Shown here one piece after another: positions 544 to 45,203 of a stretch of DNA of 64,000 nucleotides (the stretch's first letter is position 1; each line of letters starts with the position of its first letter). Source of the DNA: an uncultured Erysipelotrichaceae bacterium (GTDB lineage: Bacteria > Bacillota_I > Bacilli_A > Erysipelotrichales > Erysipelotrichaceae); NCBI GenBank assembly GCA_902761625.1, contig CACWLH010000002.1, forward strand, positions 8,126 to 72,125. Direction: 5' to 3'. The position numbers and the translations under genes are program-made. The notes beneath the pieces were generated by a model, which was given only the letters and a program-made list of their open reading frames with translations, had not been told where the DNA came from and searched no databases.

Positions 544-2583
544 TCAATAAATGAATTCTCTGGTCATCAGATGTTTGGTTTTCTGGTCTGTTGTTGTTTC
601 CGTGATCAGTCTGTTGAAGCTGTCATAATATCTGGTCCGTTCCCAGAGCACGTGATGATTTCCATCTTCACATACAGCCTGGATTTCCAGTCCGTTCTCA
701 TTATACGTATATGAGGTCTTGGTGTAGCCGGTGTCCTCCTGATCATGAAAGTCATTATAGGTGATCAATGAATCCAGAGATCCGTTTTCATTGAAGATTT
801 CGATCCGGTAGGAAAAATCATCATTGCCCAGGATGGTTTCAATCCTGTGTTCTGAAATCTGTGAGCCTTTCCAGTCATATTTATGTTTCTCACGCAGCAC
901 ATCATTGATGTAGACGCCGGCAATCCGGTGTCTGCGGTTGTATGTATAACGATAATCCGAGAATTGCGAAGGCAGTCCGTTCTGGTAGCGGACCAGGCTC
1001 AGAAGTGCCCCGCTGCTGTCACGCTTTTCGGTTTCAGTCAGAATGCCGCGGCGGAATGTGTCTTTGGCGCTGCCTTCATCGGAATAGGTATAAATGTATT
1101 CAAGACGGTCATCCGCATCCGGATATTGTTCCTTGATCATGCGTCCGTTTGCATCATATTGGTATTTGACTGTACCGGAAGAAACACCGTTTTCCATCAT
1201 GATGACTTTGCGCACCAGTGTGGATTCAGGCATATCCTCTCCCTTTGTCCGATGAAGCGCCTTTTTCAGTCGTTCAATCTCATCGGTGAGTTCTCTGATC
1301 TGATTGCCGGATTCGGTTTTATAATCTTCGAACGCTTTGTTCAGCATTTCCTCCTGCTCAATCTGGCGGTCGTAGTCTTCCTTCCATTTCTGGATCTCCA
1401 GCTTGTATTCCTTGATATCCTTGCGCTGTTTTTTCAGCTTTTCATTCAATTCATTGCGGATGATCATATGCTGGCGTTTTTCTTCGGCCAGCTGTTCCTT
1501 CTGTTCCTCCATGAAACGGCTGATATTGACGGAACCCGTGCCTTCTTCCGAGCCATAGGATTCTTCAAATTGCTGAAGATCTTCGATCAGTTCTTCGCCG
1601 TTGTCATAACGGTGGCTGGGTTCTTTGTTGGAAGCCTTGCGGATGATGCGCTTGAGGCCTTCAGGCAGAAAGTCAAACTGGCCGTTGGCAACATATTTCA
1701 TCAGGCAGCCCAGATTAAACATGTCCACACGCGCATAATCAATCTCATCCTTGTCAAAGTCTCCGGTCATTTCCGGGGCGATCGCGAATTCATTGACGAT
1801 GATGGTGCGGGTGCTGTCCGTGATACTGCTTTCGGGAATGCCGCTTTCAATATCAATCAGCACGAATTCATAAACATCCGGACATTTGAAATTCAATGTG
1901 ATGCCGATGTTGGGAGGCTTGATGTCTCGATGGATAAAACCGGTTCCGTCGTCCGAATATTCCGATACCTGCAGGGCTGCGCCGATTTCCTTTCCCAGCT
2001 TGACGATCATGCGGATGATTGAAGGAAGATCTTCAGGAAGGCTGACATTCTTCAATGTTCCGGCAACCTCATCCATAACCACAAGTGAGGCACAGGGGAT
2101 CACAGAGTCAATGGAAAAGGAAAGGTCAGGATAATAATGCAGGAAATGATGTTCGTAAAACCGGTTCTGATGACACTGGGCCACCACTTCAAGCACCCGT
2201 CTGCTTCCTCTTAAGGAAGGCATGAATGAAGGTGCTTCCAGAAGGGTTTTCACGGTATCGGTCATATGAATATTATCGGGATTTTTATTTTTATTGAGCG
2301 ATGCCAGATAAGCGGAGATCGGGTTGACCGACTTCACGACAAGGGAAAGATCCATCAGCTCTTCGTCCTTCTCGCTTGTCTGATCATTGTCAACGGTGTA
2401 ATGAAGCCTGTATACAATTCCGCTTCCTCCGTCGCCCAGTCTTTTTCCGCAGCGAAACCGGCCGTGATAGCAATCCAGTCCGGCAATGTGTTCATTGAGC
2501 AGATTCTCAACCAGTGCCGGTGTGATTCTCGGCAGACTGTTCAGTCTGAGCTCTTCGGTTTTCGGTATCTTGTTTGCGGCCAT
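544..2583 (-). CDS. Cytoplasmic Hanks-type Ser/Thr protein kinase with a central coiled coil and C-terminal YD/MORN-like beta-hairpin repeats
   Basis: Kinase motifs are present: Gly-loop GDGGSGIVY, catalytic loop IHRDIKPPNI, LIDIESG in the DFG position and IAPE. A ~100-aa K/E-rich heptad region follows. The C-terminus has repeats such as YQYDANGRMI, YIYTYSDEG, YRYTYN and YTYNENG. No signal peptide or TM segment. Confidence 0.85.
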   Translation of the reverse strand: MAANKIPKTEELRLNSLPRITPALVENLLNEHIAGLDCYHGRFRCGKRLGDGGSGIVYRLHYTVDNDQTSEKDEELMDLSLVVKSVNPISAYLASLNKNKNPDNIHMTDTVKTLLEAPSFMPSLRGSRRVLEVVAQCHQNRFYEHHFLHYYPDLSFSIDSVIPCASLVVMDEVAGTLKNVSLPEDLPSIIRMIVKLGKEIGAALQVSEYSDDGTGFIHRDIKPPNIGITLNFKCPDVYEFVLIDIESGIPESSITDSTRTIIVNEFAIAPEMTGDFDKDEIDYARVDMFNLGCLMKYVANGQFDFLPEGLKRIIRKASNKEPSHRYDNGEELIEDLQQFEESYGSEEGTGSVNISRFMEEQKEQLAEEKRQHMIIRNELNEKLKKQRKDIKEYKLEIQKWKEDYDRQIEQEEMLNKAFEDYKTESGNQIRELTDEIERLKKALHRTKGEDMPESTLVRKVIMMENGVSSGTVKYQYDANGRMIKEQYPDADDRLEYIYTYSDEGSAKDTFRRGILTETEKRDSSGALLSLVRYQNGLPSQFSDYRYTYNRRHRIAGVYINDVLREKHKYDWKGSQISEHRIETILGNDDFSYRIEIFNENGSLDSLITYNDFHDQEDTGYTKTSYTYNENGLEIQAVCEDGNHHVLWERTRYYDSFNRLITETTTDQKTKHLMTREFIY

Positions 2584-2593
2584 ATTGATTTAC

Positions 2594-3373
2594 TTAACTG
2601 AGTTCTCTGATCCGGATCACACATGCGCTGATATTGTCACGGCTTGTTTTCAAAGCGGCATTGACAAGTGTCTGCGCATCGTATTGATTAGTTTCCAGTA
2701 TATTCAGTATATCATCTGTACGCAAAAATCCGTTCACATCTGTAAAGGCATGGATCAATCCGTCCGTGGCAAGCACATAAAGATCATCTTTCTCGGGTCT
2801 GAAGCGGTAGATATCTGCCATCTGATGGCCGGAATGGGATGTGTTGCCGGCATATTCACTCAGCCGTGACGTATTGGAAAGAGGCGTGATGATATGCGCT
2901 TTTCCATGATGAAAGCGTAATACCGCCGCATCGCCCATATTCAATATCCTGACTTCATCCGGATAGATTCCGATAACACTGAGAGCAGCTGCGAGCTGTC
3001 TGTTCCACTGGTTGGATATATGGATCATCGTTTCATTGATTTCATCCGCAATGGCATCCATGGACTGGTCCAGGGAATACTCATCAAACAGATCGTCCAG
3101 TATTCTTCTGACAATGGATACAGCCGCATCATCCTGCGGTCTTTCAGTGTGTTCGGCGCCGGATACCCCGTCGGCGATCACGCTCATGAATTCATTGATT
3201 CCTTCGTATTCTTTCTGATGCGATATATGGTTCTGTCCTTCTGAACAGATGGTTTCGCATCCATCTGAAAATCCATAGGCATCCAGATTGCTGGCCCGTC
3301 CGGATATATCACTTGCGGCTGAGATGAACAGATGCATCTCGAGCGCGTCTGAATCCTGTATCTGTGTGTTCAT
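2594..3373 (-). CDS. PP2C-family Ser/Thr protein phosphatase
   Basis: PP2C motifs VIADGVSGAEH, LNMGDAAV, VLATDGLIHAF and DNISACVI. GGAG RBS 8 nt upstream of the ATG. It ends 10 nt before the kinase gene on the same strand. Confidence 0.85.
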   Translation of the reverse strand: MNTQIQDSDALEMHLFISAASDISGRASNLDAYGFSDGCETICSEGQNHISHQKEYEGINEFMSVIADGVSGAEHTERPQDDAAVSIVRRILDDLFDEYSLDQSMDAIADEINETMIHISNQWNRQLAAALSVIGIYPDEVRILNMGDAAVLRFHHGKAHIITPLSNTSRLSEYAGNTSHSGHQMADIYRFRPEKDDLYVLATDGLIHAFTDVNGFLRTDDILNILETNQYDAQTLVNAALKTSRDNISACVIRIRELS

Positions 3374-3376
3374 AGT

Positions 3377-5485
3377 ATGTTCTCCGTGATCAAAAACATT
3401 GTTTCTGATCCGTTTTCAATTTATCTGCTTCACAATAACCCCTTTTTTTTGGAGATGTCGGATCTGTCTGCTATCATGAAAATGGCAGGTAAGTATATGA
3501 ATAATATAGCAGGAAAACAGAAATATATATCGCTTGTCACCGGCTGGAGTGACAGGGCGGAAAAAATCAGAGACGAAAAATACATTGACTGGCATGATTC
3601 CGTGGAGAAAAGGCTGAACAGTCCGTATTTCAATACGCGCCTGGCAGGTCTTCTGGGAATCAAAGATCCGGAAAACCTTTCAAAATACGGCAGTAAGAAT
3701 CAGCTGATCGCCGCGGTGACGGGTTTCAATGAGGCGGAAATTGAAAAACTGAGATGGCTGCCCAGTGACCGGCGTGATCTCATGTTTGCCTTTGCCTTTG
3801 TGCTTGGCTATGAATACCAGCTGCTCACCACAAAAGACGGCAAACTGATTGTCGACTGCAGCCCGGAACTCAATCAATACTTTGATGATGCCGATATGCC
3901 ATTGCCTGATTATCGCAATCTGGATGATTATATTGCCATCTGCGCAGCCATGTATTACAGCGAATGCAACCGGAAAAAAGTCTATGGAAAAAACCGCATG
4001 ATCACGCTGTATGATCTGCAGGACAATCTGAGAAATCAAATGAGCAGCTATATCCTTGATCTGGATGAATTTGTCAGCTGGCCGGATTTCTTTGAATATT
4101 ACACATCATTGTTCAAACTGACCAATGCGAAAATCAAGAAGATCACGGGATTTGAAAAGTACAATACGCTGGAATGGAAAAAGAGAGTCCCCGAAGAGCC
4201 GGAAGTGCTTTTCATGATCTGCATTCTGTTCCATTTCACCCTGATCCAGAGCGTTCTTGTCTTTGACCGTTTCTACAATCAGGAAGACAAAGTGCAGAGG
4301 CCTGACTTCGAAAACAGCGAGGATCTGAGATGGCTCTATCTGGTTGAGAATTTCTGGAAACTGAAAGAGCTTCATTTTGAGGACCAGATCCAGGCGGTCA
4401 GGGATTATTATGATCAGAACAATCTGAGAAGATCCACGGATCTTTCCATTCTCCAATATCATGAAATATTCCAGTCGCTCACATTTGCAATGGATCAGAA
4501 ACAGGAATCCGCAAACAGCGGGCCGGGACAGACATTGATTGTGTCCGATTCCGCACAGCTTGGCGAGATCGCCGCCATTTCTCCATACGACCGTGTATTC
4601 ATCCATGCCGTGGACGGAACCGATCCGGTGATCAAAGCCGCAACCGATTTCTCTCTGGGCTATCAGATGGACGTTCTGCACGCGGCTGACCCGGCGAAAA
4701 TCTTATGGTACAGAAAGAAGACAACCACAAAGAAAAAGAAGGATGTGTCTGATGATCTGATCAGACAGATCTATTACAAAAAGAAACCGGATATGATGGA
4801 TCTGAACATGGAGAAGGGCTCAAAGCTGCTTCTCGAATGGATCGCTGACAACTCCGTCAACGCATATCTGATGAGAATTTATGATCTGGATAAACAGGAT
4901 AAATCCCTTGTCTGGAATAAGAAGCTTTCCGATCTTCAGCTCAAACACGGCAGCTATCCGAAACGGAAGGAGCTGATCGTTGCCGGCGTATTGATGAGCA
5001 TGCCGGAAAAGGGAATCAATGCCTTGCTGAAATGCTACGGATACAAGGCTTTGAGCAAACACGACTATACCGAATATGTGCTGATTCTGATATTGAATGA
5101 TATGGCGAAATTCTTCCCGTCTGAATTCTGTTTCAATGAGAAATACACTGCCAACCGCGCCGATATTGACCATGGCATCCAGAATATCGGAGCCAGACGC
5201 CAGGCGGACCGCAGTGACAGGGAAGGCTGTCTCTCCCTGCTGAGAAAATGGTATCCGAGATGGTTCTATGAATATGATCAGTCAATTTCGCAGACCGTGG
5301 TCAATGAACGGATTTATATTGATAATCAAAACTGGTATACGGTGGAGCCGCAGGAATATTTCGATGCCTGGTCGGTCAGGAAGCATGTTCTCTGGTGCCT
5401 TCACGCGGCCGGTTTCCCGAAGAATAACTGGCTGGTGAGCGGCCTGGCCAATCCGATGAAAGAGGATGAATATCCGCTTGGATGA
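3377..5485 (+). CDS. Large hypothetical protein (702 aa as drawn), possibly with several degenerate XRE-like HTH units; start codon uncertain
   Basis: Long uninterrupted ORF with host-like codon usage. Recurrent segments LVTGWSDRAEKI, AAVTGFNEAEIEKLRW and KKITGFEKYNTLEWKK resemble HTH helices. The ATG at 3377 sits inside the RBS-to-start spacer of the divergent PP2C gene. In-frame alternative starts are at 3455 and 3476. Confidence 0.65.
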   Translation: MFSVIKNIVSDPFSIYLLHNNPFFLEMSDLSAIMKMAGKYMNNIAGKQKYISLVTGWSDRAEKIRDEKYIDWHDSVEKRLNSPYFNTRLAGLLGIKDPENLSKYGSKNQLIAAVTGFNEAEIEKLRWLPSDRRDLMFAFAFVLGYEYQLLTTKDGKLIVDCSPELNQYFDDADMPLPDYRNLDDYIAICAAMYYSECNRKKVYGKNRMITLYDLQDNLRNQMSSYILDLDEFVSWPDFFEYYTSLFKLTNAKIKKITGFEKYNTLEWKKRVPEEPEVLFMICILFHFTLIQSVLVFDRFYNQEDKVQRPDFENSEDLRWLYLVENFWKLKELHFEDQIQAVRDYYDQNNLRRSTDLSILQYHEIFQSLTFAMDQKQESANSGPGQTLIVSDSAQLGEIAAISPYDRVFIHAVDGTDPVIKAATDFSLGYQMDVLHAADPAKILWYRKKTTTKKKKDVSDDLIRQIYYKKKPDMMDLNMEKGSKLLLEWIADNSVNAYLMRIYDLDKQDKSLVWNKKLSDLQLKHGSYPKRKELIVAGVLMSMPEKGINALLKCYGYKALSKHDYTEYVLILILNDMAKFFPSEFCFNEKYTANRADIDHGIQNIGARRQADRSDREGCLSLLRKWYPRWFYEYDQSISQTVVNERIYIDNQNWYTVEPQEYFDAWSVRKHVLWCLHAAGFPKNNWLVSGLANPMKEDEYPLG

Positions 5486-5631: not shown

Positions 5632-6612
5632 ATGTTGAAATACAGATATTACCGCTCTTTGCTCAATCATAAGGAACAGACCGTCTATGAACAGCTGGTA
5701 AGCGCCATGGAGAAATGTGAAGAGGAAGTATTCACGGAAATGCTTTCGCAGGAAGAGCTGCACCGGATCTTTTTCGCCGTGAATCTGGACCAGCCGCAGC
5801 TGTTTCATGTGGATTTCAGAAGTATTGCCATCTGCCAAAGAGGAAACAGATATCTTCTGAAACCTGTCTATCATCTCAAGGGAAAACAATATACGGACGC
5901 AAAAAAGAATGTGGATCTGGCTGCCGCTGCGATTCTGGATGAAATGAAACAGAAGAAGCCGGAAGATCCGTTTCTTTTCCTTCATGACTGGCTGATTGTC
6001 AATTGCACATATGGAGAAACAGAAGAAAGAAGCAGGGAAGCCCATTGTGTCTATGGCGCTCTGGTTGATCATCATTGCGTCTGTGAAGGCTTTGCCAAGG
6101 CATACAGATATCTCTGCACGCTGGCTGATCTGCAATGCACAGTGATCACCGGCAATGCCACAGTGCCTTTTCAGCCTTCCGGTCCCCATGCATGGAATAT
6201 GATCCGTGATCACGGGCATCTGTATCATGTGGATGTGACCTTTGATCATCTGATTGCGCAGAAGTATTGTTCACGTTCCTATTACAGGGTTTCCGGACAG
6301 ATCATCCGCAAAGATCATTCGTTTGACACGCTCTTTCCGATTCCGCAGGCAAAACATAACGGATCTTCTCTCAAAACGGTCGCAGGAACCCGCCAGCTGA
6401 TCGCATTTATGAAAGACGAATGTTACCGGGGCAGCCATATGAGTCAGGTCAGGCTGACAAAAGGATTTGAAATGGATGACATCATTCAGAAAATCGAATC
6501 CGGCCTTTGCGAGGAGGATTATGCATGGTTTTCAAGGCTTCAAAGCTGCCATTATGCCCCGGGCACACGGGTGATCAGCTTTGTCTGGAATCAGCCTGTG
6601 TATGGCACATGA
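5632..6612 (+). CDS. Transglutaminase-like (papain-fold) cysteine protease superfamily protein
   Basis: A Cys-His-Asp core in canonical spacing: HHCVCEGFAKAY ... GPHAWNMI ... YHVDVTFD. GGGAGGA RBS upstream. Confidence 0.85.
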   Translation: MLKYRYYRSLLNHKEQTVYEQLVSAMEKCEEEVFTEMLSQEELHRIFFAVNLDQPQLFHVDFRSIAICQRGNRYLLKPVYHLKGKQYTDAKKNVDLAAAAILDEMKQKKPEDPFLFLHDWLIVNCTYGETEERSREAHCVYGALVDHHCVCEGFAKAYRYLCTLADLQCTVITGNATVPFQPSGPHAWNMIRDHGHLYHVDVTFDHLIAQKYCSRSYYRVSGQIIRKDHSFDTLFPIPQAKHNGSSLKTVAGTRQLIAFMKDECYRGSHMSQVRLTKGFEMDDIIQKIESGLCEEDYAWFSRLQSCHYAPGTRVISFVWNQPVYGT

Positions 6613-6687: not shown

Positions 6688-7455
6688 ATGTCAGTTTTCA
6701 AAACAGGCGTCAATAACGCAAAACTCAATATCATTTTCATTCTCGATTCCAGCGGCTCCATGAGAGGGGCACGCATCGGTCAGCTCAATCTCGGTGTGCG
6801 GGACTGTCTGAACATGATCAGCCATATGGACGGTCTTGAGGAAGTCAACGTCGAGATCCGCATTCTCCAGTTTGACGAAGATGTCAGATGGGTGCTTGGC
6901 AATGAAGAATCCGGTGTTACTCCGGAAGAAGCGCTGAACACATTCCGTGACATCGATGCCGTCAATGCCATCACCTGCACACACATGGCGGTAAACAAGA
7001 CCATGGAATGCCTGAAGTCGATTTACGCCAGCGGCGGCAACAATTACATGCCGATTCTCATCCTGGTCACCGACGGACGTTCCACTTATCCCGAGGAAAC
7101 CGTAAAGTCCTGTATGGATCTCAGCAAAGTTCTCCACGGTCATACCCACCGTGATGAAGAACGCACCATCCGCATCTCCATCGGCGTCGAAGAGGCCAAC
7201 CGCGATGAACTGCTCGCCTTTGCCTCAAAGAGAACCATCGTTCATTCCGACGGACTGCAGGAAGCGGATGTGCCCAATATCTTCGAGGTCGACTCAGTCG
7301 AAAATCTCAGAGATGTCCTGAAGAACATCACCATGGCATCCATCTCCAATTCGATTTCCGCAAGTTCCTCTGAAACCGGACAGGTCATCGAATATGAGGA
7401 TGACATTTCCGATTCGGATGACGATGAGGATGACGGCATCTGGGAGGATCTCTGA
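6688..7455 (+). CDS. von Willebrand factor A (TerY-like) protein with an intact MIDAS and an acidic C-terminal tail
   Basis: MIDAS motif IIFILDSSGSMRG, then ITCTH and ILILVTDGRS. The C-terminus is EYEDDISDSDDDEDDGIWEDL. AAGGAGG RBS upstream. Confidence 0.9.
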   Translation: MSVFKTGVNNAKLNIIFILDSSGSMRGARIGQLNLGVRDCLNMISHMDGLEEVNVEIRILQFDEDVRWVLGNEESGVTPEEALNTFRDIDAVNAITCTHMAVNKTMECLKSIYASGGNNYMPILILVTDGRSTYPEETVKSCMDLSKVLHGHTHRDEERTIRISIGVEEANRDELLAFASKRTIVHSDGLQEADVPNIFEVDSVENLRDVLKNITMASISNSISASSSETGQVIEYEDDISDSDDDEDDGIWEDL

Positions 7456-7481
7456 ACCATTGAAAAAAACGGAGGAATGCA

Positions 7482-9188
7482 ATGAACAGGAACATGGAAG
7501 ATAACAGAAACGAAATCATACTGCCGTCCATCATGATCAATGAAGAGGAAAATACCGGTCAGTATGAACAGTACAGCCGTGAAACCTGCGCATGCGATTC
7601 CTCCGTTTATCTGTTCACTGCCCGCCGCAAGGGCAGAGGCCATATTGCAAAGGGAATGCCCTGTCAGGATTATGCCCTGAACCGGGAAATGAAATACGGT
7701 CTGATCATGACGGCGGCGGATGGACTTGGCAGCTGTGAATACAGTGATGAAGGTTCCCGGATTGCCTGCGAAAGTGCGGTCCATATCATCTCGGAAATCG
7801 GCACAAAGGCAAAGTCGGAAACCATCTTCATCAAAAAGCTGAACCAGCTGTTCACAAGAAAGCGGATCGTCATGGAATGGATGGACAGAGTCAGCGCTGT
7901 TGCTCAGGGAAAAAGCGGCGCTATGCCGGATGATCTTTATGAGGCAGCCCGTCCGTATAATTCCACTTTGATGTGCGCGGTGATCACGAAGCATTTCATC
8001 TATGTCATGAATATCGGCGACGGTCAGATTCTTCTGTTCAATTCCGATTATGCATACAGACTCCGTCCGTATATGAAAAAGAACAGCTCCATGACGGATT
8101 CCCTTCATGATGTGCGCAGCTGGATGGAAGGCTTTCAGACCGCCCTGTTTCCGAGAAGGTATTTCAACGGGATTCTTCTTTCAAGTGACGGCATCTATGA
8201 TTTTCTGAATGAGGGACAGAGTTTCCACCGTTATGCATGCCAGATGGCAGAGCGGTTTGTCTCCGCCGGCAGCCCGGCGTTTCCGTTTGATTATGTGACG
8301 GAAGACGGTAAGGTCCATCATATTTATGAAGGCGGCAGTTTTGATGACTGCACCGTCAATCTGGCCGTGATGATGAAGCCGCTCGCAGCTGATCCGGTTC
8401 ATGAATATGTACAGAATGCTTTTGAGAAAAACGCCATCAGCCGCATGAGCAGAAATGTGCGCAGATATCATGTGGCAAAAGACGGCAGAGAATCCATTCT
8501 GGTCACTTCATCCGCAATGTATGACTTCGATGTACAAAGCGCCAGTTTGATCAGGCCGTATCATGAAGAGACGGTTCATGATTGTCATTATTCGCTGTAT
8601 GAAACCATCCCGTTTACTTCCCTGGAAGAAATGTATGTTTCAGGCGCGTTCCATAATGGCAGAACGAATGATCTGAAACATCTCATGCGGATCGGCAGCT
8701 GCTATGCAAAACTGAAACGGCTCGCCGATGAACTGGCTGCGCAGAAATGGAAACTTTCAGACGCGTCCGGATTTCTTTGCGGTTTTGATGAAAGCGGCAG
8801 CCTTTATTTATGTGCGCAGGCGGTTTCACGGATGGAACAGGAAAAACCGGGTGAGCGCTATGCATGGGTCAATCTTTATTTCCGCAACATCTTCGGGTTC
8901 CTCGTTTTTGAAAACAGAAAAATTCCGGTCTTCCGCAAAGGCATCAATGAAACGGAACAGAAGGTGGAGCGGATTGACGGGCTGGATCATACACATTTCG
9001 GCACTATTCATTCCGCCGGCACTCATTGTGAGCTGGTCAATGAAAGCGGAAAAGAGTGGATCTGTGAAAATGGAGAATGCATCAGCCAGGGAGAATCGAT
9101 TGTTCTGGACAAGGCGGTCTCATTCAGCTTTGCGCCGAGAAATGATATCCGTCTGGCCTATCACTTTGTGAGAAAGGAGAGCTTATGA
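7482..9188 (+). CDS. PP2C_2-type phosphatase domain protein with a ~270-aa C-terminal extension
   Basis: KGMPCQDYAL, TAADGLGSCEYSDEGSRIA, NIGDGQILL and LLSSDGIYDF match the PP2C_2 pattern. The extension is unassigned. Its last ~60 aa look like a beta-rich module, possibly FHA-like. Confidence 0.8.
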   Translation: MNRNMEDNRNEIILPSIMINEEENTGQYEQYSRETCACDSSVYLFTARRKGRGHIAKGMPCQDYALNREMKYGLIMTAADGLGSCEYSDEGSRIACESAVHIISEIGTKAKSETIFIKKLNQLFTRKRIVMEWMDRVSAVAQGKSGAMPDDLYEAARPYNSTLMCAVITKHFIYVMNIGDGQILLFNSDYAYRLRPYMKKNSSMTDSLHDVRSWMEGFQTALFPRRYFNGILLSSDGIYDFLNEGQSFHRYACQMAERFVSAGSPAFPFDYVTEDGKVHHIYEGGSFDDCTVNLAVMMKPLAADPVHEYVQNAFEKNAISRMSRNVRRYHVAKDGRESILVTSSAMYDFDVQSASLIRPYHEETVHDCHYSLYETIPFTSLEEMYVSGAFHNGRTNDLKHLMRIGSCYAKLKRLADELAAQKWKLSDASGFLCGFDESGSLYLCAQAVSRMEQEKPGERYAWVNLYFRNIFGFLVFENRKIPVFRKGINETEQKVERIDGLDHTHFGTIHSAGTHCELVNESGKEWICENGECISQGESIVLDKAVSFSFAPRNDIRLAYHFVRKESL

Positions 9189-10645
9189 TCAAAGGCGATT
9201 ACCGGGAAGTGATCAAAACACTGCCCGGCGGGAAAAAGAAAACATACAAAGTCATAAGCTCCAAGGCCGGCAATGAATATGCGCTGCTGGGCAGACTGGG
9301 GCAGGGCGGGGTTGCCCGGGTTTTCCGTGCGAAGCGCTTAAGCGACGGGGCAATGTTTGCCTTCAAGCTGTTTGATTATTCTGATTCATCCGAAACCCGC
9401 TGGGAACACCGCAATATCCGCTCGAATATTGAAAGTCTGATCGCAAGAGGGACATCGGATGATCCTCAGCTGTTTGAAATTCTGGCAAGACCTTATGAAA
9501 TCATTGATCTCAAGGCATCGGGCGGCTTCGGCTATATCATGGAACTGGTCAGTCTTGACAACATGATGAAATTCTCAAAGATGATGAAATCGGCCCAGCC
9601 GGACAGGATGATCAGCCTGAAGATCTGCCGCAATATGGCATCCTTCTATGCGAGGCTGCACAGAAAATACGGCTTATGTTACAAGGATCTGAACAAAGGC
9701 AATCTGTTTGTGAATCCCGATACCGGCGAGATCCGGATCATCGATCTGGACAATATCAGCGTTCCCGAAACCAGAACGGTTATCGGCACATATGGATTCA
9801 TCGCTCCGGAGGTTTATGAAAGCGGCAGGCCGGATTATTATTCCGATTATTTTTCAGAAGCGTCTCTTTATTTCTTTCTGCTTACGATGGGGGCATTGCC
9901 TCTGATCGGCAGAAAAGTGCTGGATTATTCCCGCACGGGAGCGAATCTGAATGATTATGAAGTGCAGAAGAAGGTCTTCAATGAAGAGGCAATGTTCATC
10001 TTTGATCCGGACCACAATGAAAACTCCATCCGCGGACTGGAAGAATACAATGATCAGACCATGTTATGGGATGATCTTCCGGAAGAATTGAAACAGGCGT
10101 TTATCCGCACATTCACGAAAGGTCTTCATGATCCGTACCAGCGTGTTTCGGATAAAAACTGGGAGAAGATCTTTGAAGATGCGATTGCCACGCAGCTGGT
10201 GCAATGCCGCTGCGGAAAGCATAATTTCGGCGTGCATGCAGGAAGAAAAAAATGTATTTACTGTCACCGGCCGATCCGCAAACTCCATGGCGCAAAAGTC
10301 CCAGCAAAAAAGAAAAGTGAAAAACCATGCGTGAAATTTGAGGTGATCCGCAGCGTTGAACCGATGCGCATGCAGCTGATTGCGGATAATCAGAATCCGC
10401 AGATCAAAGATGTCCATCCCATGTTGCATGGGGATTTGTTAACTGTTAAAGTCAATAGGAAGAGGCATCTTTACGGGGCGCTCAACACGTCCCCGATCAC
10501 CTGGACGGTCTATGATAAAGAACACAATAAATCCCGTGTGGAGCCGGGCTGTATGGCGGTGCTTGAAGAGGGAACCATTATTGTGGTGATGTACAGAAAA
10601 CTTCAGCTTATGGTGAATGAAGTCATAACAGGAGGCGCAATATAA
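9185..10645 (+). CDS. Divergent Ser/Thr protein kinase with a zinc ribbon and a C-terminal beta-rich (FHA-like?) domain
   Basis: GQGGVARVF Gly-loop, AFKL lysine, YKDLNKGNLFV catalytic loop, IIDLDN and GFIAPE. Zinc ribbon CRCGKHN...CIYCHRP. The ATGA start overlaps the stop of the preceding gene. Confidence 0.85.
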   Translation: MIKGDYREVIKTLPGGKKKTYKVISSKAGNEYALLGRLGQGGVARVFRAKRLSDGAMFAFKLFDYSDSSETRWEHRNIRSNIESLIARGTSDDPQLFEILARPYEIIDLKASGGFGYIMELVSLDNMMKFSKMMKSAQPDRMISLKICRNMASFYARLHRKYGLCYKDLNKGNLFVNPDTGEIRIIDLDNISVPETRTVIGTYGFIAPEVYESGRPDYYSDYFSEASLYFFLLTMGALPLIGRKVLDYSRTGANLNDYEVQKKVFNEEAMFIFDPDHNENSIRGLEEYNDQTMLWDDLPEELKQAFIRTFTKGLHDPYQRVSDKNWEKIFEDAIATQLVQCRCGKHNFGVHAGRKKCIYCHRPIRKLHGAKVPAKKKSEKPCVKFEVIRSVEPMRMQLIADNQNPQIKDVHPMLHGDLLTVKVNRKRHLYGALNTSPITWTVYDKEHNKSRVEPGCMAVLEEGTIIVVMYRKLQLMVNEVITGGAI

Positions 10646-10646
10646 T

Positions 10647-11846
10647 ATGCAAACAGAAACAGCCAAAATGAACTCACTGGATTTATATCAGCGCATTCTG
10701 GCCGTGAAATCACAGGATTCATCCTTTGACGGCAGAAAGGCCGTGACTGCACTGATCACAAAGATGGCGCTTGAGCTGATTGAGGAGAAAACATCTCCAT
10801 TGCTCAATGCGTGCGTTTATGTGCTCGGACGGCGTGAACATCTTTATATCGGTCATGTCTACCGGTTTCAGCGGTTTGATCTGGATCTGAGAAATCCCGT
10901 GGACGGTGTGTCGGCGGCGGATGCGGCGGTATTGATCCGCTGTCTGGCCCAACTGGTTTCAAACGGACAGATCCGCAACAATGTCATCTATGATGTATGG
11001 TATGAATCATTCGGCACCTCCGGAACCACGCTAGGCGCCAATGCGGAGCGGGCTTATTATCTGGTCCGCATGATTGAAAGCTATCTGCCTGATTATGAAG
11101 CGCGTATCAATCATTCTCAGAAAGACGCTGCCGCGCAGACAGAAGAGCCGAAAACGGATGAACAGAACATCACACAGCCGGATGAGAAACAGGTGAGTGA
11201 AGAACAGGCACAGCAGATCATCAAAGAAGCGCAGGAAAAGGCCAGGGCAATCATTGCCAAAGCGGAACAGGAAGCCACTGAAATCCTGAAAAATGCGCAG
11301 AATGTGTCTGATCAGAAAATCAGGAAAGCGGCAGAGCAGGCAAAGCAGATGAATGTTTCCCGGAATCTGGAAACATTTGAAACACAGCAGAATGAGATCC
11401 ATACCGCTCTTTCGGAAATCCGCCGGCGGCTCAATGAAACCGGCGCATATCTGAATCAGATTGATCAGAAAATCAATGATGAAACGGTTATGAAGATCTT
11501 TGATCAATACGATGAACTCTATAACCTCATCGCGGATGTGGCGGACAGTACGGCAGCCAATATGGATGGGGACAGTCCTGATCTCAGGCGGGTTTATCAG
11601 AATCATCAGGCATATCTGGATCTGATTGAGGAAAATCTCTCAGACTTCGGAATTGAATATCTTGCCACATCGCAGGGCGAGCCGTTTGACGGCAGAAAGC
11701 ACGAGGTGAGCGGTTCGAAAAACTTTGATCCGCGCAGCGCAAAAGTGAAGAAGAGTCTGCGACATGGCTTTGTTTACGGAAAGTCCGTATTGAAGAAAGA
11801 ACTGGTTGAACTTCAGGAGGAACAATCAAATGTATATCGGCGTTGA
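10647..11846 (+). CDS. GrpE-like nucleotide-exchange factor with a novel N-terminal domain and a long coiled coil
   Basis: The C-terminus LSDFGIEYLATSQGEPFDGRKHEV...LRHGFVYGKSVLKKELVEL follows the GrpE pattern (FGvE..G.pFDp..HeA...GY..g..lR.a.V.V). It is preceded by the helix EQAQQIIKEAQEKARAIIAKAEQEATEIL. The gene starts 1 nt after the kinase stop. Confidence 0.7.
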   Translation: MQTETAKMNSLDLYQRILAVKSQDSSFDGRKAVTALITKMALELIEEKTSPLLNACVYVLGRREHLYIGHVYRFQRFDLDLRNPVDGVSAADAAVLIRCLAQLVSNGQIRNNVIYDVWYESFGTSGTTLGANAERAYYLVRMIESYLPDYEARINHSQKDAAAQTEEPKTDEQNITQPDEKQVSEEQAQQIIKEAQEKARAIIAKAEQEATEILKNAQNVSDQKIRKAAEQAKQMNVSRNLETFETQQNEIHTALSEIRRRLNETGAYLNQIDQKINDETVMKIFDQYDELYNLIADVADSTAANMDGDSPDLRRVYQNHQAYLDLIEENLSDFGIEYLATSQGEPFDGRKHEVSGSKNFDPRSAKVKKSLRHGFVYGKSVLKKELVELQEEQSNVYRR

Positions 11847-13299
11847 CTTCGGAACAGCCTATTCCCAGGCTGCGGTGATGGAATTCTCCCAGCCGCTCAT
11901 TCTTCAGGAAAAAGGCGTCTACGGCACCCCGAGTGTCTTCTATTATGATCAGGACACCGGCATCGCCATCGGTCAGGAGGCAATTGATATCGCCCAGGGC
12001 AGTCTTTCCGTCAATATGAAGACCGATGTCAAAATGGCATTGCAGGAAAACAAACCCTTTACCGCAGACGGAAAGGAATTCAGCTGTTCAGAGATTGTTT
12101 CCGAAATTTTCAAAGCGGTTCTGCTTGAGGCAAAGGAAATCGCCGCCAACAGCGGAATGGATGATGAAATCAAAGGAATGGTGATTACCGTTCCCGCCAA
12201 ATTCGGCTATCTGGAACGGGATATCATTTTCAAAAGCGCCGCTTCCGCTTTGGGCGATGAGAAAATTCCGATCACCGGTGTTCTGAAAGAACCGGTGGCG
12301 GCAGCCCTGCATTATTTCCGCACCAATGTTGAGGATGGAAAGCATATTCTTGTCTTTGATCTTGGCGGAGGCACATGCGATATCGCTCTGGTCAGAGCCA
12401 ATTCCGGCTCCAGGGAATTCTATGATGTCATCGATTCCGAGATGGAGAGGATCGGTGGACGAAACTGGGATGAGAAGATCGCGGAATATCTGAAAAATGA
12501 ATATGAAAAAATGACCGGCATTGCCATCGGTTCAAATCCGGCCTACGAAAGAAAAATCCTTGATGCGGCCATCCGCGCCAAGCACCGCCTTTCCAGAAAT
12601 GACAAGGCGCTCTGCTCGGTGGAAATCAACGGGAATGTCAATAAGATTCATCTGAGCCTTCAGCAGTTCAATGATCTGACTGCACCGCTTCTGGACCAGG
12701 CGGTCTCCGCATTGAAGCGGGTGTACAACCGTCATGTCTCAGACTGTGAAATCGATGAGATCATCTGTGTCGGCGGCAGTTCAAACATGACCCAGATCAA
12801 GGAAAGAATCGCAGCTGAATTCCCCCTGTGCAATGTGCGGGTGTACTATCCGGAATATGCGGTGGTCTATGGAGCGGCCCTTTATGCGGATATGAGAAAG
12901 GGCAAGGTTGTCGATGTCATTGACAGGGCGAATTTCTCCTATGGCATCCAGGTGGTGAAACACAAGGGAACAGAAAACGAAAAATACAAGATTCAGAATA
13001 TGGTCATCAAGGATTCCGCTTTGCCGGCCTCTTCGGTGCGCAACTACCGTCCCACCGAGGACAACATGGCATTTATCGCCTTCCGCACCTATGAAACCGA
13101 TACGGTATATGAGCGGTGCGACATGGATGAATTCCCGATGACCAAGATCGGTGAACTCAAACTCAAGCTTCCTCCGAATACACCGAAAACAACCGATATC
13201 CGCACCCAGCTCACCCTCAATGAGAACGGCGTTCTCGAAGTCAAGGCATGGGATCCGGAAGGCAATGTGATTCAGACTGAATTCAATGTGATTCAATGA
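11830..13299 (+). CDS. Hsp70/DnaK-family ATPase, short lidless form (489 aa)
   Basis: Hsp70 motifs IGVDFGT, VFDLGGGTCDIAL and ICVGGSSNMTQIKERI. A beta-sandwich substrate domain is present but no helical lid and no EEVD tail. GGAGGA RBS 8 nt upstream of the ATG at 11830. The gene overlaps the end of the GrpE-like gene. Confidence 0.9.
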   Translation: MYIGVDFGTAYSQAAVMEFSQPLILQEKGVYGTPSVFYYDQDTGIAIGQEAIDIAQGSLSVNMKTDVKMALQENKPFTADGKEFSCSEIVSEIFKAVLLEAKEIAANSGMDDEIKGMVITVPAKFGYLERDIIFKSAASALGDEKIPITGVLKEPVAAALHYFRTNVEDGKHILVFDLGGGTCDIALVRANSGSREFYDVIDSEMERIGGRNWDEKIAEYLKNEYEKMTGIAIGSNPAYERKILDAAIRAKHRLSRNDKALCSVEINGNVNKIHLSLQQFNDLTAPLLDQAVSALKRVYNRHVSDCEIDEIICVGGSSNMTQIKERIAAEFPLCNVRVYYPEYAVVYGAALYADMRKGKVVDVIDRANFSYGIQVVKHKGTENEKYKIQNMVIKDSALPASSVRNYRPTEDNMAFIAFRTYETDTVYERCDMDEFPMTKIGELKLKLPPNTPKTTDIRTQLTLNENGVLEVKAWDPEGNVIQTEFNVIQ

Positions 13300-13976
13300 T
13301 GAATGGGTCCGGAAGAATCATTGCCATTGCGGATATTCACGGCTGCAGCAGGGAATTCAAAGCGCTGTTGCAGCAGATCAGTCCGGATCCGGCAAATGAC
13401 ACATTGATCATTCTCGGCGATGTCATTGACAGAGGATATGATTCCGAAGGCGTCATCCGTGAGCTGATTGAACTTAAAGATGTCTTCAGACAGAAAATGA
13501 TCTGGCTGGCGGGCAATCATGAGGATGATCTTGTGCAAAGAAATGCGCAGAAACATTTCTTCATTCATCCGCCGCGCGATGCGCTCAGCACGTATATCCG
13601 GCTGTTCAGTGAACTTCCGTTAATTTATGAAACAGAAGAATGTGTCTTTGTGCATGCGGGATTCAATGGTGATCCGGACGACAGGCAGATCATTCTTCGT
13701 GACAGGAGTGTATTGAACGGGGAAAGGATTTATCAGGGAAAGCTGTATATCAGCGGGCATTCCCCGTTTCATAAACATTCGTTCACACCATTGGCTCAGC
13801 CGTTATATATTGATGAAACAGGTCAGTGTCATATTGTATATGACGGCATGAAACTGCCGGAAAAAGGCGCCATATTCATTGACACAGGCTGTGTATACAA
13901 AAACAGACTGACCGCATTCATCATTGCGCAGGACCATACCATTCAGATCAGCTTTGTAAAGTTCATCGGAATATAA
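13296..13976 (+). CDS. PPP-family (calcineurin-like) metallophosphatase, PrpA/lambda-phosphatase-like
   Basis: Motifs IADIHGC, ILGDVIDRG, GNHE, VHAG and SGHS. The ATGA start overlaps the Hsp70 stop. Confidence 0.9.
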   Translation: MMNGSGRIIAIADIHGCSREFKALLQQISPDPANDTLIILGDVIDRGYDSEGVIRELIELKDVFRQKMIWLAGNHEDDLVQRNAQKHFFIHPPRDALSTYIRLFSELPLIYETEECVFVHAGFNGDPDDRQIILRDRSVLNGERIYQGKLYISGHSPFHKHSFTPLAQPLYIDETGQCHIVYDGMKLPEKGAIFIDTGCVYKNRLTAFIIAQDHTIQISFVKFIGI

Positions 13977-14654: not shown

Positions 14655-14702
14655 TATTGGCAGCCCTGCTCATGAAGAAACTGAATCATTGAACAATAAA
14701 AT

Positions 14703-14738
14703 GAAAAAGAGTCTGATCACAAAGATCAGGCTCTTTTG
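14703..14738. terminator. Bidirectional intrinsic terminator
   Basis: AGAGTCTGATC-ACAAA-GATCAGGCTCT hairpin flanked by an A-run and a T-run, between convergent genes. Confidence 0.65.
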
Positions 14739-14747
14739 GTGATGCGG

Positions 14748-15470
14748 TCAGAACAGAAGATCATCGTCATCGTCATCGAAATCATCCGGATCATCTTCAC
14801 TGACGCTCAATACCTCTTTCAGCATATTGTCAAAGACCCGGCTGAACATTGACTTGATCCGGTCTCTCAACGGGATCATGAACAATGAGAGCAGAACGAA
14901 GACAGCGGAGAACATGAATTTGCCGGAAACGATCCATGTGATCACAAAGACTGCGAATGCTGTCAGTGCCCATAACAGACGGACACCGTTGGCATTGCAA
15001 TAAGACGCAAGCAGGCAGAGGAACAGGAAAGCAGCCATGACGAATCCGCCCGCCAGGATCAGGTAGCCGAACTTCCAGAAAGTGGAGTCAATGGTGAGCC
15101 AGCCCGCTGTGACGAGAGTGATCGCGAAGGCAAGCATCTGGGAAAAGAATGCCTGGTGAGTCTGATCAAGGCAGTACTTTTTCAGCTTCTTCTTTGCGTA
15201 AAGCGTCTGGCTTGCTTCGTCAACCGTAAGCTCCGCAATGGAGCAGATCAGAAAACAGATCAGCCCGTAGAAAATGGCAAACGGCAATAACCGGATGATC
15301 CGTTCCATCAGGGAGTAATTCCGGTAATAAGGTGCGAAATCATCCAGTACCGCCGGCAGACAGTCATAGATCAATGTCTCAAACAATGATGTGAATGAAT
15401 ACTGAACACACCATACGCCGGCAAGAATCAGAACGAATACGAAGATATCTTCTAAAATGGAATGACTCAT
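14748..15470 (-). CDS. Multi-pass membrane protein with a poly-acidic C-terminal tail
   Basis: About six hydrophobic segments. The C-terminus is SEDDPDDFDDDDDDLLF. I chose the start at 15470 (MSHSILEDIF) because of a GGGGG RBS; the longer ORF-track start at 15596 has none. Confidence 0.75.
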   Translation of the reverse strand: MSHSILEDIFVFVLILAGVWCVQYSFTSLFETLIYDCLPAVLDDFAPYYRNYSLMERIIRLLPFAIFYGLICFLICSIAELTVDEASQTLYAKKKLKKYCLDQTHQAFFSQMLAFAITLVTAGWLTIDSTFWKFGYLILAGGFVMAAFLFLCLLASYCNANGVRLLWALTAFAVFVITWIVSGKFMFSAVFVLLSLFMIPLRDRIKSMFSRVFDNMLKEVLSVSEDDPDDFDDDDDDLLF

Positions 15471-15655
15471 ATAATCCCCCTTTCTTTCATGGACTGCAGA
15501 CTTTTGAGCAACCATGATTGATGTTCCCTTACAGGAAAAGTATCTCATCTGTACATGGCCATCTTTTTTTTCGGGTTTTGGTCTGTCATAAGGCAATCAT
15601 GAGGAAAAAAAAGGATCATTTGATATGTGACAGAATGAAATCATGAAGGAGTGAA

Positions 15656-16036
15656 ATGATTATGGCAAAAGAAATCGGCAAAGAGGAACTTCTGGAAATG
15701 ATGGTGACACATCTGGATTGTGTCTGTGAACTGTTTCAGGCAAATGACTGTGCAATCAAGAAACTTCACAGCTTTCTTATGAACAGCGATATTCCGTATC
15801 TTGTGCTTCCGGACAGCCATCATGATTTCATGATCATCTATCTCAATCTGCATGGCAATGAAGGTGAGGCAGGATACAGAATCACCCATGATCCAGCCGG
15901 CCGCGACTGGCTGCAAATCAGTACGGATGACGGCGTGATGGGGGAATGCATGAGTGCATCTGAAGTATTCGGCATCCTTAAAGAAGCTTATGAAAGGGAT
16001 ACATATGTCAATGAAAACGGATTCTTCGACGCATGA
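15656..16036 (+). CDS. Hypothetical small cytoplasmic protein
   Basis: 126-aa ORF with a GGAG RBS, in an operon-like overlap with the next gene. No family recognised. Confidence 0.55.
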   Translation: MIMAKEIGKEELLEMMVTHLDCVCELFQANDCAIKKLHSFLMNSDIPYLVLPDSHHDFMIIYLNLHGNEGEAGYRITHDPAGRDWLQISTDDGVMGECMSASEVFGILKEAYERDTYVNENGFFDA

Positions 16037-16574
16037 GGTCAGCGTGCTGCCCGTCGTTGTTGTGATCGATACATCTGAAAAAGCCGAAGCGATGGCGGGT
16101 GTGATGGATCCGTCTCTTCTGAGCAGCCTCTGCACAGCCTCTCATCTGTATGCGGATCATCCTTATCCGATGCTTTCAATCATCACTTCCGGCGCTGAGC
16201 CGAAGATGATCAAATGCTGGTATATGCCTTTTCAGCCCAAACGGACGGATCTGGTATTCAAAGGAGAGAATCATATGCATCGCTCACTCTATATGGCGAT
16301 CGAGGAAATCCGCTGGCTGTGCAGACATCTGGAACATTATGAGATTGCATATGAGAAACCGCGCATCTATATGCTTAACGCAAGTGAGGCGGATGATAAT
16401 GAAAACGGAGTCATAAAGGCATTGCATTTACGCATGGAGCGCGGCAGATGCGATTTCATTGAGGCTGTTTACGGTATAGGCATTTCAGCGGATGGCATGT
16501 CTTTTGACACGCTTGCGCAGGGACTGGCGTGGATTGAAAAAGATCTGAAACTGATGAAACGAAATACATTCTGA
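16005..16574 (+). CDS. Degenerate vWA/TerY-like protein with a lost MIDAS
   Basis: The motif order follows a vWA fold, but the metal ligands are replaced. LPVVVVIDTSEKAEAM stands where DxSxS is expected, LSIITSGAEP where the vWA pattern has lsvitFgs, and KPRIYMLNASEADDN where TDG is expected. Confidence 0.5.
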   Translation: MSMKTDSSTHEVSVLPVVVVIDTSEKAEAMAGVMDPSLLSSLCTASHLYADHPYPMLSIITSGAEPKMIKCWYMPFQPKRTDLVFKGENHMHRSLYMAIEEIRWLCRHLEHYEIAYEKPRIYMLNASEADDNENGVIKALHLRMERGRCDFIEAVYGIGISADGMSFDTLAQGLAWIEKDLKLMKRNTF

Positions 16575-21192: not shown

Positions 21193-21232
21193 GCGGGCAT
21201 TCATCTGAATAGATGGGTGCCTGCGTGTTTTT
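21193..21232 (+). terminator. Intrinsic terminator
   Basis: A ~13-bp imperfect stem (GCGGGCATTCATCT / AGATGGGTGCCTGC) followed by GTGTTTTT. Confidence 0.55.
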
Positions 21233-21282
21233 GGCGCAAAGTGTGTTGTTTTCAAAGAAAGAAGGTGATTATAATAAAGAAT

Positions 21283-24882: not shown

Positions 24883-24904
24883 TCGTTTTACAATCATACT
24901 GCAT

Positions 24905-24937
24905 CAGACCGCATGTGCATTTCATGCGGTCTGTTCT
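24905..24937 (+). terminator. Hairpin terminator with a weak U-tract
   Basis: Perfect 11-bp stem CAGACCGCATG/CATGCGGTCTG followed by TTCTCC. Confidence 0.45.
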
Positions 24938-24951
24938 CCAAAGGAGTCACT

Positions 24952-32370: not shown

Positions 32371-32397
32371 TCAAATGAAAGGAGATTCAAAAACAAC

Positions 32398-33579: not shown

Positions 33580-33589
33580 TCCGGTTTTT

Positions 33590-34306: not shown

Positions 34307-34312
34307 TCACGC

Positions 34313-43799: not shown

Positions 43800-45203
<1,404 letters not shown>

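Follow-up and report, generated by a model that had tools for sequence, protein, structure and literature searches.

Why are genes for a vWA protein, a PP2C-type phosphatase and a Ser/Thr kinase placed side by side, and do these three genes make up the whole system? The question is raised by a stretch of 64,000 nucleotides from an uncultured Erysipelotrichaceae bacterium (contig CACWLH010000002.1 of assembly GCA_902761625.1; this whole stretch is called the window below), in which an earlier note, made from the sequence alone, had recognised such a set at positions 6,688 to 10,645 and had named it a TerY-P-like triad. TerY-P triads are widespread, and to our knowledge nothing is known of what they sense or how they signal. 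The triad in the window is part of a rare, conserved six-gene cassette that carries its own Hsp70-like, GrpE-like and transglutaminase-like genes. The classification as a TerY-P triad had already been proposed; what is new here is its extension by Hsp70 and GrpE. It seems fairly probable that the locus represents a rare variant of TerY-P-type triads in gut and rumen Firmicutes, in which the triad forms one transcription unit with a dedicated GrpE-like protein and Hsp70-like ATPase, and usually with a transglutaminase-like peptidase, and serves as a switch in the response to stress or invaders by the mechanism proposed below.

A triad within a six-gene cassette

The cassette is made up of the following genes:

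5632..6612, + strand: transglutaminase-like cysteine peptidase, the first cassette gene (326 aa; Pfam Transglut_core 3.3e-06)
6688..7455, + strand: vWA protein, the TerY-like component (255 aa; complete metal ion-dependent adhesion site, MIDAS; Pfam VWA 3.4e-10)
7482..9188, + strand: long PP2C_2 phosphatase (568 aa; Pfam PP2C_2, PF13672, 1e-28 over residues 51-259)
9185..10645, + strand: Ser/Thr kinase (486 aa; Pfam Pkinase 1.5e-13 over residues 32-241)
10647..11846, + strand: GrpE-like nucleotide exchange factor (399 aa; GrpE core at ~240-390, preceded by a variable N-terminus and a coiled coil)
11806..13299, + strand: Hsp70-like ATPase (about 490 aa; gene-caller start at ~11830; Pfam HSP70, PF00012, 7.4e-52)

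The borders of the locus had previously been drawn around the triad alone. The triad itself stands, while those borders were too narrow and left out the GrpE-like, Hsp70-like and transglutaminase-like genes of the larger cassette. Among the homologous loci that were compared (labelled L001-L096), a GrpE-like gene lies 3' of the kinase gene in 17 loci, 14 of them non-redundant (L001-L005, L009-L012, L090-L096), and an Hsp70-like gene comes next in each of them but L092, where the contig breaks off within the GrpE-like gene. The same downstream genes are still found near kinase homologues at 31-41% identity, and the hosts include Roseburia, Solobacterium, Selenomonadales and unclassified gut and rumen contigs. 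When metagenomes were scanned with the alignment of the GrpE-like proteins, five relatives turned up, all five of them in such arrays, with the order vWA (1-3 copies), PP2C (~600-630 aa), kinase, in some a second kinase-like gene, GrpE-like and Hsp70-like. The extension is nevertheless rare: in a profile scan for kinase relatives (one genome per species, 80 loci, neighbours identified by six-frame open reading frames (ORFs) and jackhmmer), only 4 of the 80 genome loci carried Hsp70 and GrpE.

The flanks of the cassette vary: L005 has amt/P-II and proS there, L002 has DegV and a sigma factor, and L004 has trypsin, Sel1 and rhomboid genes. Because the flanks differ in every genome, the linkage between triad and chaperone genes is selected rather than inherited synteny. 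Within the window, the PP2C and kinase genes overlap by 4 nt, as do the Hsp70-like gene and the metallophosphatase gene that follows it, which indicates co-translation. A scan for promoters and terminators gave nothing above chance. In all, genes for a vWA protein, PP2C, kinase, Hsp70-like protein, GrpE-like protein and peptidase that look active, as judged from their sequences, are contained in one tightly packed unit.

The Hsp70-like protein matches DnaK (4rtf) at 1.6e-36, aligned up to DnaK residue 496, and has its ATPase motifs (DFGT, EPVAAA, DLGGGT) intact. It consists of the nucleotide-binding domain and the beta substrate-binding domain, and the helical lid is absent. The GrpE-like protein of the window itself falls below the Pfam GrpE model (NCBIfam GrpE 0.005). 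Pfam GrpE (PF01025) is found on 8 of 10 of its homologues (best 3.6e-10), and the profile of the family matches Geobacillus GrpE (4ani) at 6.8e-06 over 152 residues. These homologues are ~300-430 aa long (184 aa in one lineage), with a conserved C-terminus of ~150 residues. As for the transglutaminase-like protein, 12 homologues encoded beside triads retain its Cys (CxG), His (HAWN) and Asp (DxT). The gene adjoins the triad in L002, L003, L005, L091, L093, L004 and L010, is located 5' or 3' of the Hsp70-type array in most cases, and also accompanies triads that lack Hsp70 (L013, L015, L029, L041, L084).

In some loci a second divergent kinase-like gene (about 430-444 aa) is inserted between the kinase and GrpE-like genes (L004 9576-10898, L090 7701-8981, L094 7106-8437). 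In L004 the C-terminus of its product also matches the profile of the FHA-like phosphatase domain that is described below.

The triad proteins

ORF calling placed the three triad genes exactly where the earlier note had put them, all on the + strand, with 26 nt between the vWA and PP2C genes. The motifs that had been read from the letters are likewise all present in the translations: the MIDAS (DSSGS ... T ... TDG) in the vWA protein, PCQD, ADGLG, GDGQ and SSDG in the phosphatase, and YKDLNKGN, IDLDN and APE in the kinase, followed by the CRC...CIYC ribbon. The kinase and phosphatase contain two further features:

10196..10279, + strand: Zn ribbon (CxC...CxxC) of the kinase, which aligns with the ribbon of the ter-plasmid kinase
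8370..8846, + strand: middle domain of the phosphatase (residues 297-455), a separate conserved region in 13 cassette phosphatases

Across the cassette vWA homologues the MIDAS residues (DxSxS...T...D) are conserved. In the kinase (29 sequences) K61, D168, D187, N190 and A207-P208-E209 are invariant and N173 is nearly so, while in its ribbon C341, C357 and C360 are invariant and C343 nearly invariant. In the phosphatase (7 sequences) D63, D80-G81, D180-G181, D236-G237 and D288-D289 are invariant, the metal-binding Asp residues of PP2C being among these. Since catalytic and metal-binding residues and motifs are conserved in the homologues, all three triad proteins look functional.

The kinase consists of the kinase domain (~26-336), the Zn ribbon (338-365), a linker and an FHA-fold domain (380-481). 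A whole-kinase AlphaFold model (pLDDT, the predicted local distance difference test, of 88.6) shows the same arrangement, i.e. kinase domain, ribbon, a disordered linker at 371-378 and, from residue 382 to 481, ten beta strands. In Foldseek this full-length model retrieved kinases alone (CaMKII, PknB; template modelling (TM) score up to 0.77 on the target), which is uninformative on the tail. The phosphatase is built of PP2C (~40-296), the middle domain (297-455) and an FHA-like domain (~470-568). A search of 1.84 billion cluster representatives with its C-terminal half gave 13 matches at E <= 1e-3, and a second homologue search with the phosphatase alignment yielded no additional sequences. 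From its residue pattern the middle region was suspected to be a degenerate pseudokinase, an idea that found no support (hhalign probability against the kinase alignment below 1%, no PDB match).

A TerY-P triad was defined in 2012 as a TerY-like vWA protein with a PP2C and a Ser/Thr kinase that has a C-terminal Zn ribbon (Anantharaman et al. 2012, as quoted in PMC11090510 and PMC4978471). Gene content, gene order and the Zn-ribbon kinase of the window fit this definition as quoted there, by which the locus is, at the level of sequence, a member of the TerY-P triads, as had been proposed. The reference for comparison was the triad of a Klebsiella/Enterobacteriaceae ter plasmid (L007, NZ_AP019666.1). 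A tblastn search of plasmids with the kinase matched 2312 records, mostly Enterobacteriaceae plasmids; in L007, with the array TerY-TerD-TerY-TerY(TerY-C)-PP2C-kinase, the match is the kinase. The two kinases align by BLASTP with 29% identity (E 2e-21) over residues 145-365, from the catalytic loop through the Zn ribbon, which bears out the proposed relation to the reference TerY-P kinase. The phosphatase matches the ter-plasmid PP2C at 1e-08, and the vWA protein has a weak but genuine similarity to the TerY of the ter plasmid (0.001 by BLASTP; the TerY copies of L007 are also picked up by jackhmmer). In the scan described above, vWA and PP2C genes were present within 9 kb of the kinase gene in 76 of the 80 loci, in the order vWA-PP2C-kinase in 34 and with the kinase first in 42.

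Many Lachnospiraceae have triads in the order kinase-vWA-PP2C with a gap of ~1.2 kb between kinase and vWA that none of the six query profiles matches (about 10300-11500 in each of L016, L027, L031, L032, L036, L049 and L050; also L053, L058, L062, L064, L067, L073 and L080). The gap presumably holds a further conserved gene of unassigned kind.

FHA-fold domains and the tail of the vWA protein

Three C-terminal elements of the triad proteins deserve attention:

10322..10627, + strand: C-terminal beta sandwich of the kinase, with FHA fold and 10 strands
8889..9185, + strand: FHA-like beta domain at the phosphatase C-terminus (by hhalign to the kinase tail)
7342..7452, + strand: acidic, Ser/Asp/Glu-rich C-terminal tail of the vWA protein, which ends in DDGIWEDL

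It had been suggested that both the kinase and the phosphatase carry C-terminal regions that resemble FHA domains. For the kinase this holds. Residues 380-486, modelled alone by AlphaFold with a 25-sequence alignment, gave a confidently folded, all-beta model (pLDDT 92.3, predicted TM score 0.84), and the tail is not disordered. All 50 PDB matches listed by Foldseek were FHA or SMAD-MH2 domains, among them SNIP1, CEP170, kanadaptin, Rad53 FHA1, Rv0020c, DgcB, PNKP, OdhI, GarA, EmbR and MDC1; the E-values of these listed matches are modest (4.6e-3 to 8e-2), at probabilities of 0.96-1.0 and TM scores of 0.48-0.67 over the whole domain. This modelling lends good support to an FHA fold of the kinase tail. 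For the phosphatase the suggestion applies to the last ~100 residues, by their homology to the kinase tail, and not to residues 297-455, which form the separate middle domain. An hhalign comparison of the phosphatase tails (last ~115 residues) with the kinase tail alignment gave 95.3% (E 2.3e-08, 55 columns) with 13 sequences, and 84% (E 8e-06) with 7 sequences only. The kinase and the phosphatase thus end in the same beta sandwich of predicted FHA fold, assigned by modelling in the former and by sequence homology in the latter.

The domain is not confined to these two proteins of the window. A hidden Markov model (HMM) of the kinase tail matches PP2C C-termini in L046, L082, L076, L012 and L009, and the HMM of the phosphatase tail matches kinases in L004 and L010. 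A metagenome-assembled genome of the Pirellulaceae (L087) encodes, at 14670-16559, a 630-aa vWA protein with a C-terminal FHA-like domain (E 4e-09 with the kinase-tail HMM). By such profile matches, each of the three component types carries the FHA-fold domain in one lineage or another.

The third element is the tail of the vWA protein. In 64 of the 76 triad vWA proteins a Trp stands exactly at the end, compared to 4.4% of the other long ORFs from the same loci. Most phyla have endings of the type ...DDVW, ...GDVW or ...DDAMW (the tail is seen in vWA genes of L009-L088), and 12 of the 13 vWA proteins from cassettes (i.e. of the Hsp70 clade) end in D-W-E-E/D. The Trp tail is probably a docking peptide. 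The literature found by full-text search for the domain terms makes no mention of it.

Surroundings of the cassette

The window is chromosomal and has the rplC-to-rpoA ribosomal operon with secY at 45.8-58.8 kb. Its SecY falls into a 90% cluster made up of metagenome-assembled genomes of Erysipelotrichaceae, and the contig itself derives from an ENA metagenome. The genes closest to the cassette are:

13296..13976, + strand: calcineurin-like metallophosphatase (226 aa; overlaps the Hsp70-like stop codon by 4 nt; Pfam Metallophos 1e-18)
3377..5485, + strand: 702-aa helical protein upstream of the cassette, with no Pfam, NCBIfam or PADLOC match
544..3373, - strand: divergent second pair, a short PP2C (2594-3373, 259 aa) and a kinase-like protein with RHS repeat (544-2583, 679 aa)

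The metallophosphatase has NCBIfam matches to ApaH (1e-20), PrpE-like (2.1e-10) and PphA-like (5.9e-10) models; it would be the third phosphatase of the locus and is lineage-restricted. The 702-aa protein is absent from the other cassettes (neighbourhoods of L002, L004 and L005); it was considered as a GAP1-like GTPase, a candidate that was dropped as no P-loop was seen. The second pair matches Pfam PP2C_2 (8.6e-09) and Pkinase (9.4e-05) with RHS_repeat, and generic kinase models in PADLOC. Only the two nearest relatives, whose kinases have 78% and 66% identity, keep the metallophosphatase, the 702-aa protein and the divergent pair of PP2C and ~670-aa kinase/RHS-like protein.

Further away in the window, 21217-27438 encodes an SNF2 helicase (SNF2_assoc, SWIM finger; 1221 aa; PADLOC DpdE/ZorD-like 5.8e-150) and, after it, a UvrA-like double ABC ATPase (841 aa; mad3-like 1.7e-72); the two may be a separate DNA-surveillance pair. 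A PcfJ-like protein (18301-19698), of a family that is usual on conjugative elements, and an IS1595-type transposase (43855-44934) hint at past mobile-element activity near the cassette. The remainder includes a barnase-type ribonuclease that is secreted and has an N-terminus of acidic repeats (30433-31032) and a sortase/pilin locus at 31.8-42.0 kb (31771-42044), which consists of signal peptidase, pilin and sortase genes and has a 2407-aa SpaA/DUF7601/LRR surface protein as its last gene.

Proposed mechanism and alternative explanations

The mechanism that we propose starts from the vWA protein, which would act as sensor and scaffold and bind a protein ligand via its MIDAS. The FHA-fold domains would be docking modules that draw kinase and phosphatase to a common partner, for which the vWA tail or a phosphorylated linker is the best candidate, and the opposed activities of kinase and phosphatase would determine how far the complex or a target is phosphorylated. 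Driven by ATP, the Hsp70/GrpE pair could remodel or reset this complex, or it could act on a phosphorylated client, while the peptidase may supply an irreversible output. By analogy with the TerY-P systems that have been tested, the role of the whole is most likely that of a switch in the response to stress or to an invader (phage).

Several observations weigh against this proposal. A clear defence island is not apparent, because the neighbours in the window match only generic SNF2 and UvrA-like ABC models in PADLOC, and the cassette of L005 sits between housekeeping genes. None of the cassette proteins of the window, L002, L004 and L005 matches a J-domain/DnaJ, although the DnaJ of the host might take this part. 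The middle domain of the phosphatase, without a sequence match in the PDB, is left unexplained. In the kinase alignment (29 sequences) there is no conserved Arg, Ser or His at the GR and SxxH positions of FHA domains. In PADLOC the vWA and PP2C proteins had no match even at E <= 10 and the kinase matched generic kinase models only; this result is uninformative on TerY-P membership, because the reference ter-plasmid triad (and two other triads) likewise has no TerY-P match. The order of domains in the phosphatase also differs from that of the ter-plasmid PP2C: here PP2C comes first and the extension is C-terminal, and there the arrangement is reversed.

The locus could instead be a plain member of the anti-phage TerY-P system of Gao et al. 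(2020), with the chaperone genes as irrelevant passengers. The earlier note had named this system, and the literature confirms it (PMC7699616, PMC11090510): TerY-P is active on T7-like phages (PMC7699616), and a variant protects P. aeruginosa against Autographiviridae while most cells are not killed (10.1101/2022.08.12.503731). The same three domain types, i.e. a vWA protein, a PP2C-type phosphatase and a Ser/Thr kinase, occur in one operon in both cases (PMC7699616; 10.1101/2022.08.12.503731). However, Gao's kinase is described as having an OB fold where the Zn ribbon would be (PMC11090510), whereas the kinase here, compared with that published description, has a ribbon and an FHA-fold domain, and there are no OB-fold proteins among the 50 Foldseek matches listed for its tail; it follows that the locus is not Gao's OB-fold variant as described in PMC11090510. 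The cassette has, moreover, three further conserved genes. These do not behave as passengers, because the triad is followed by a GrpE-like gene (and an Hsp70-like gene where the contig continues) in 14 non-redundant loci whose flanks are unrelated, and the GrpE-like family was found nowhere else. The missing TerY-P match in PADLOC is uninformative here as well, the reference triad being unmatched too. Plain membership in Gao's system is, in our view, distinctly unlikely. The same conservation bears on the idea that triad and chaperone genes were merely juxtaposed by chance in one lineage. It is true that the extension is limited to a small clade (the 4 of 80 genome loci), but the order is kept down to 31-40% kinase identity, in several taxa and between unrelated flanks, the genes are tightly spaced or overlapping, and the GrpE-like family was found only in the cassette, so that a chance juxtaposition is effectively refuted.

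It is also conceivable that the cassette regulates proteostasis as a Ser/Thr signalling module of housekeeping or stress physiology, much like yegI/pphC/yegL with yegD of E. coli, and has no role in conflicts with phages or mobile elements. Its chromosomal location, 30 kb from the ribosomal protein operon, would fit, as would the place of the L005 cassette between amt/P-II and proS. The core genome of E. coli K-12 has an analogous cluster of vWA, PP2C and Ser/Thr kinase genes beside an Hsp70 family gene, and the apparently intact ATPase site of the Hsp70-like protein, with its GrpE partner, is what a real chaperone would be expected to have. Against this, the distribution is patchy and rare (13 representatives among 1.84e9 proteins), the flanks differ in every genome, the vWA copy number is variable and some loci have extra kinase-like genes. 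Such patchiness, changing flanks and copy-number variation are traits of accessory, horizontally moving systems, and restriction and defence operons contain related triads (PMC11090510). A pure housekeeping role seems rather unlikely, though less so than membership in Gao's system.

Whether the FHA-fold domains read phosphothreonine is a separate matter. If they were true readers of sites made by the kinase, they would close a kinase-phosphatase feedback loop, as the earlier note had envisaged. The FHA fold of the kinase tail is in favour of this, and so are the Ser/Thr/Lys-rich linkers that precede the domain, an S/T-D-N-G loop kept in some relatives that resembles the FHA SxNG, and the fact that FHA domains partner bacterial Ser/Thr kinases elsewhere (e.g. 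GarA-PknB, 6i2p, among the Foldseek matches). However, the canonical signature for phospho-binding is not conserved: there is no conserved GR or SxxH, within the domain only N434, W440 and P454 are invariant or nearly so, and the window kinase has YDKEHNK in place of the SxNG-like loop. Pfam FHA (PF00498) matched 1 of 25 tails (E 0.011), a PDB profile search with the kinase tail found no FHA domain, and hhalign of the kinase tail with GarA, OdhI and FhaA (sequences not drawn from a database record) gave weak similarity only (E 0.0025 over 31 columns). The feedback loop is thus conjecture, and a true phosphothreonine reader is unlikely. An opposite and equally tentative idea, to which we give no higher standing, is that the FHA-fold domain is a family-specific docking module for the acidic, Trp-ending vWA tail and no phosphothreonine reader. 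On the same idea, Hsp70 and GrpE might be an integral input or output of the triad, which would make the cassette an undescribed chaperone-coupled phospho-switch in which the ...DDVW ending was re-tuned to ...DWEE in the Hsp70 clade.

Comparison with known systems

Compared with the FHA domains of GarA/OdhI, FhaA and EmbR, those of the cassette have the same beta-sandwich fold and are likewise tied to a Ser/Thr kinase/phosphatase pair. They differ in that the GR, SxxH and NG signature is not conserved and the family has invariants of its own (the three residues named above), and in that they are fused to the enzymes and not to substrates. For the tail of the classical TerY-P kinase, an FHA fold is suggested by visual similarity of pattern only, as hhalign of the kinase-tail profile with the single ter-plasmid kinase tail was not significant.

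With the ter-plasmid triad, the cassette shares the order of vWA, PP2C and Ser/Thr kinase, and a kinase whose catalytic loop is atypical (CYKDLNKGN in the cassette, CHSDLSYKN on the plasmid) and lies ahead of a Zn ribbon and a ~120-residue tail. It differs in having a single-copy vWA gene, no TerD or other ter genes and no TerY-C metal-binding domain, in the acidic Trp-containing tail of its vWA protein (TerY ends in PPPPPE..VL), and in the added Hsp70-like, GrpE-like and transglutaminase-like genes. TerY-P triads often, though not by definition, occur with ter genes (TerD, TerY-C) or with modules for DNA processing or restriction. TerD, TerY-C, McrBC, helicase and nuclease genes are found neither in the cassette nor in its homologues, in contrast to L007 and L008. 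The latter, a Prevotella plasmid (NZ_CP091789.1), has a triad at 7600-11425 in which a metal-binding TerY-C protein stands by itself upstream of the kinase, and which adjoins ADP-ribosylglycohydrolase genes and a 3'-5' exonuclease.

An association of such triads with Hsp70 has been described before. In Type III-A CoCoNuT systems the triad occurs with an Hsp70-like unit that has degenerate ATPase motifs and lacks a GrpE partner (Bell et al. 2024, PMC11090510), whereas in the cassette the Hsp70-like motifs are intact and a GrpE-like gene is present. Moreover, the McrB-like GTPase, DUF2357, HEPN and helicase genes of Type II/III-A CoCoNuTs are absent from it. GAP1-N2 systems come with either an Hsp70 and GrpE theme or a theme of kinase (with Zn ribbon plus a domain rich in beta strands), PP2C and vWA (Kaur et al. 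2020, PMC7159879); the two themes are described as non-overlapping and centred on GAP1-type GTPases (PMC7159879). In the cassette both themes are combined and the GTPase is absent; neither an McrB-like nor a GAP1-type GTPase domain was found in the cassette or in the flanks of the window, L002, L004 and L005. Full-text searches for the domain terms returned no literature on a free-standing cassette that merges both themes without a GTPase, and in none of the literature found in this way is the beta-strand-rich kinase domain named FHA-like.

These comparisons offer three handles on the mechanism of TerY-P triads. The beta-strand-rich tail of the kinase can be identified as a predicted FHA-fold domain that is common to kinase and phosphatase, and occasionally to the vWA protein; the conserved terminal-Trp peptide of the vWA protein is an obvious candidate for its ligand; and the recruitment of a complete Hsp70/GrpE pair by one clade points to protein remodelling in the mechanism. 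The last of these leads to E. coli K-12, in which the vWA/PP2C/Ser/Thr kinase cluster yegL-pphC(yegK)-yegJ-yegI is located directly beside the Hsp70 family gene yegD, and of which the YegI kinase and PphC phosphatase are biochemically active (10.1101/819920, 10.1101/303594). The likeness to the cassette is in the combination of vWA, PP2C and Ser/Thr kinase next to an Hsp70 family gene. On the other hand, YegI is a 648-aa membrane protein without ribbon or FHA tail (10.1101/819920), yegD is convergent and not co-transcribed, a GrpE-like gene is absent there, and the Hsp70-like protein of the cassette is nearer to DnaK (1.9e-46) than to YegD (1.7e-12). Even so, a triad that has recruited Hsp70 and GrpE offers a route into the long-standing puzzle of the yegD-yegI-pphC-yegL neighbourhood of E. 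coli.

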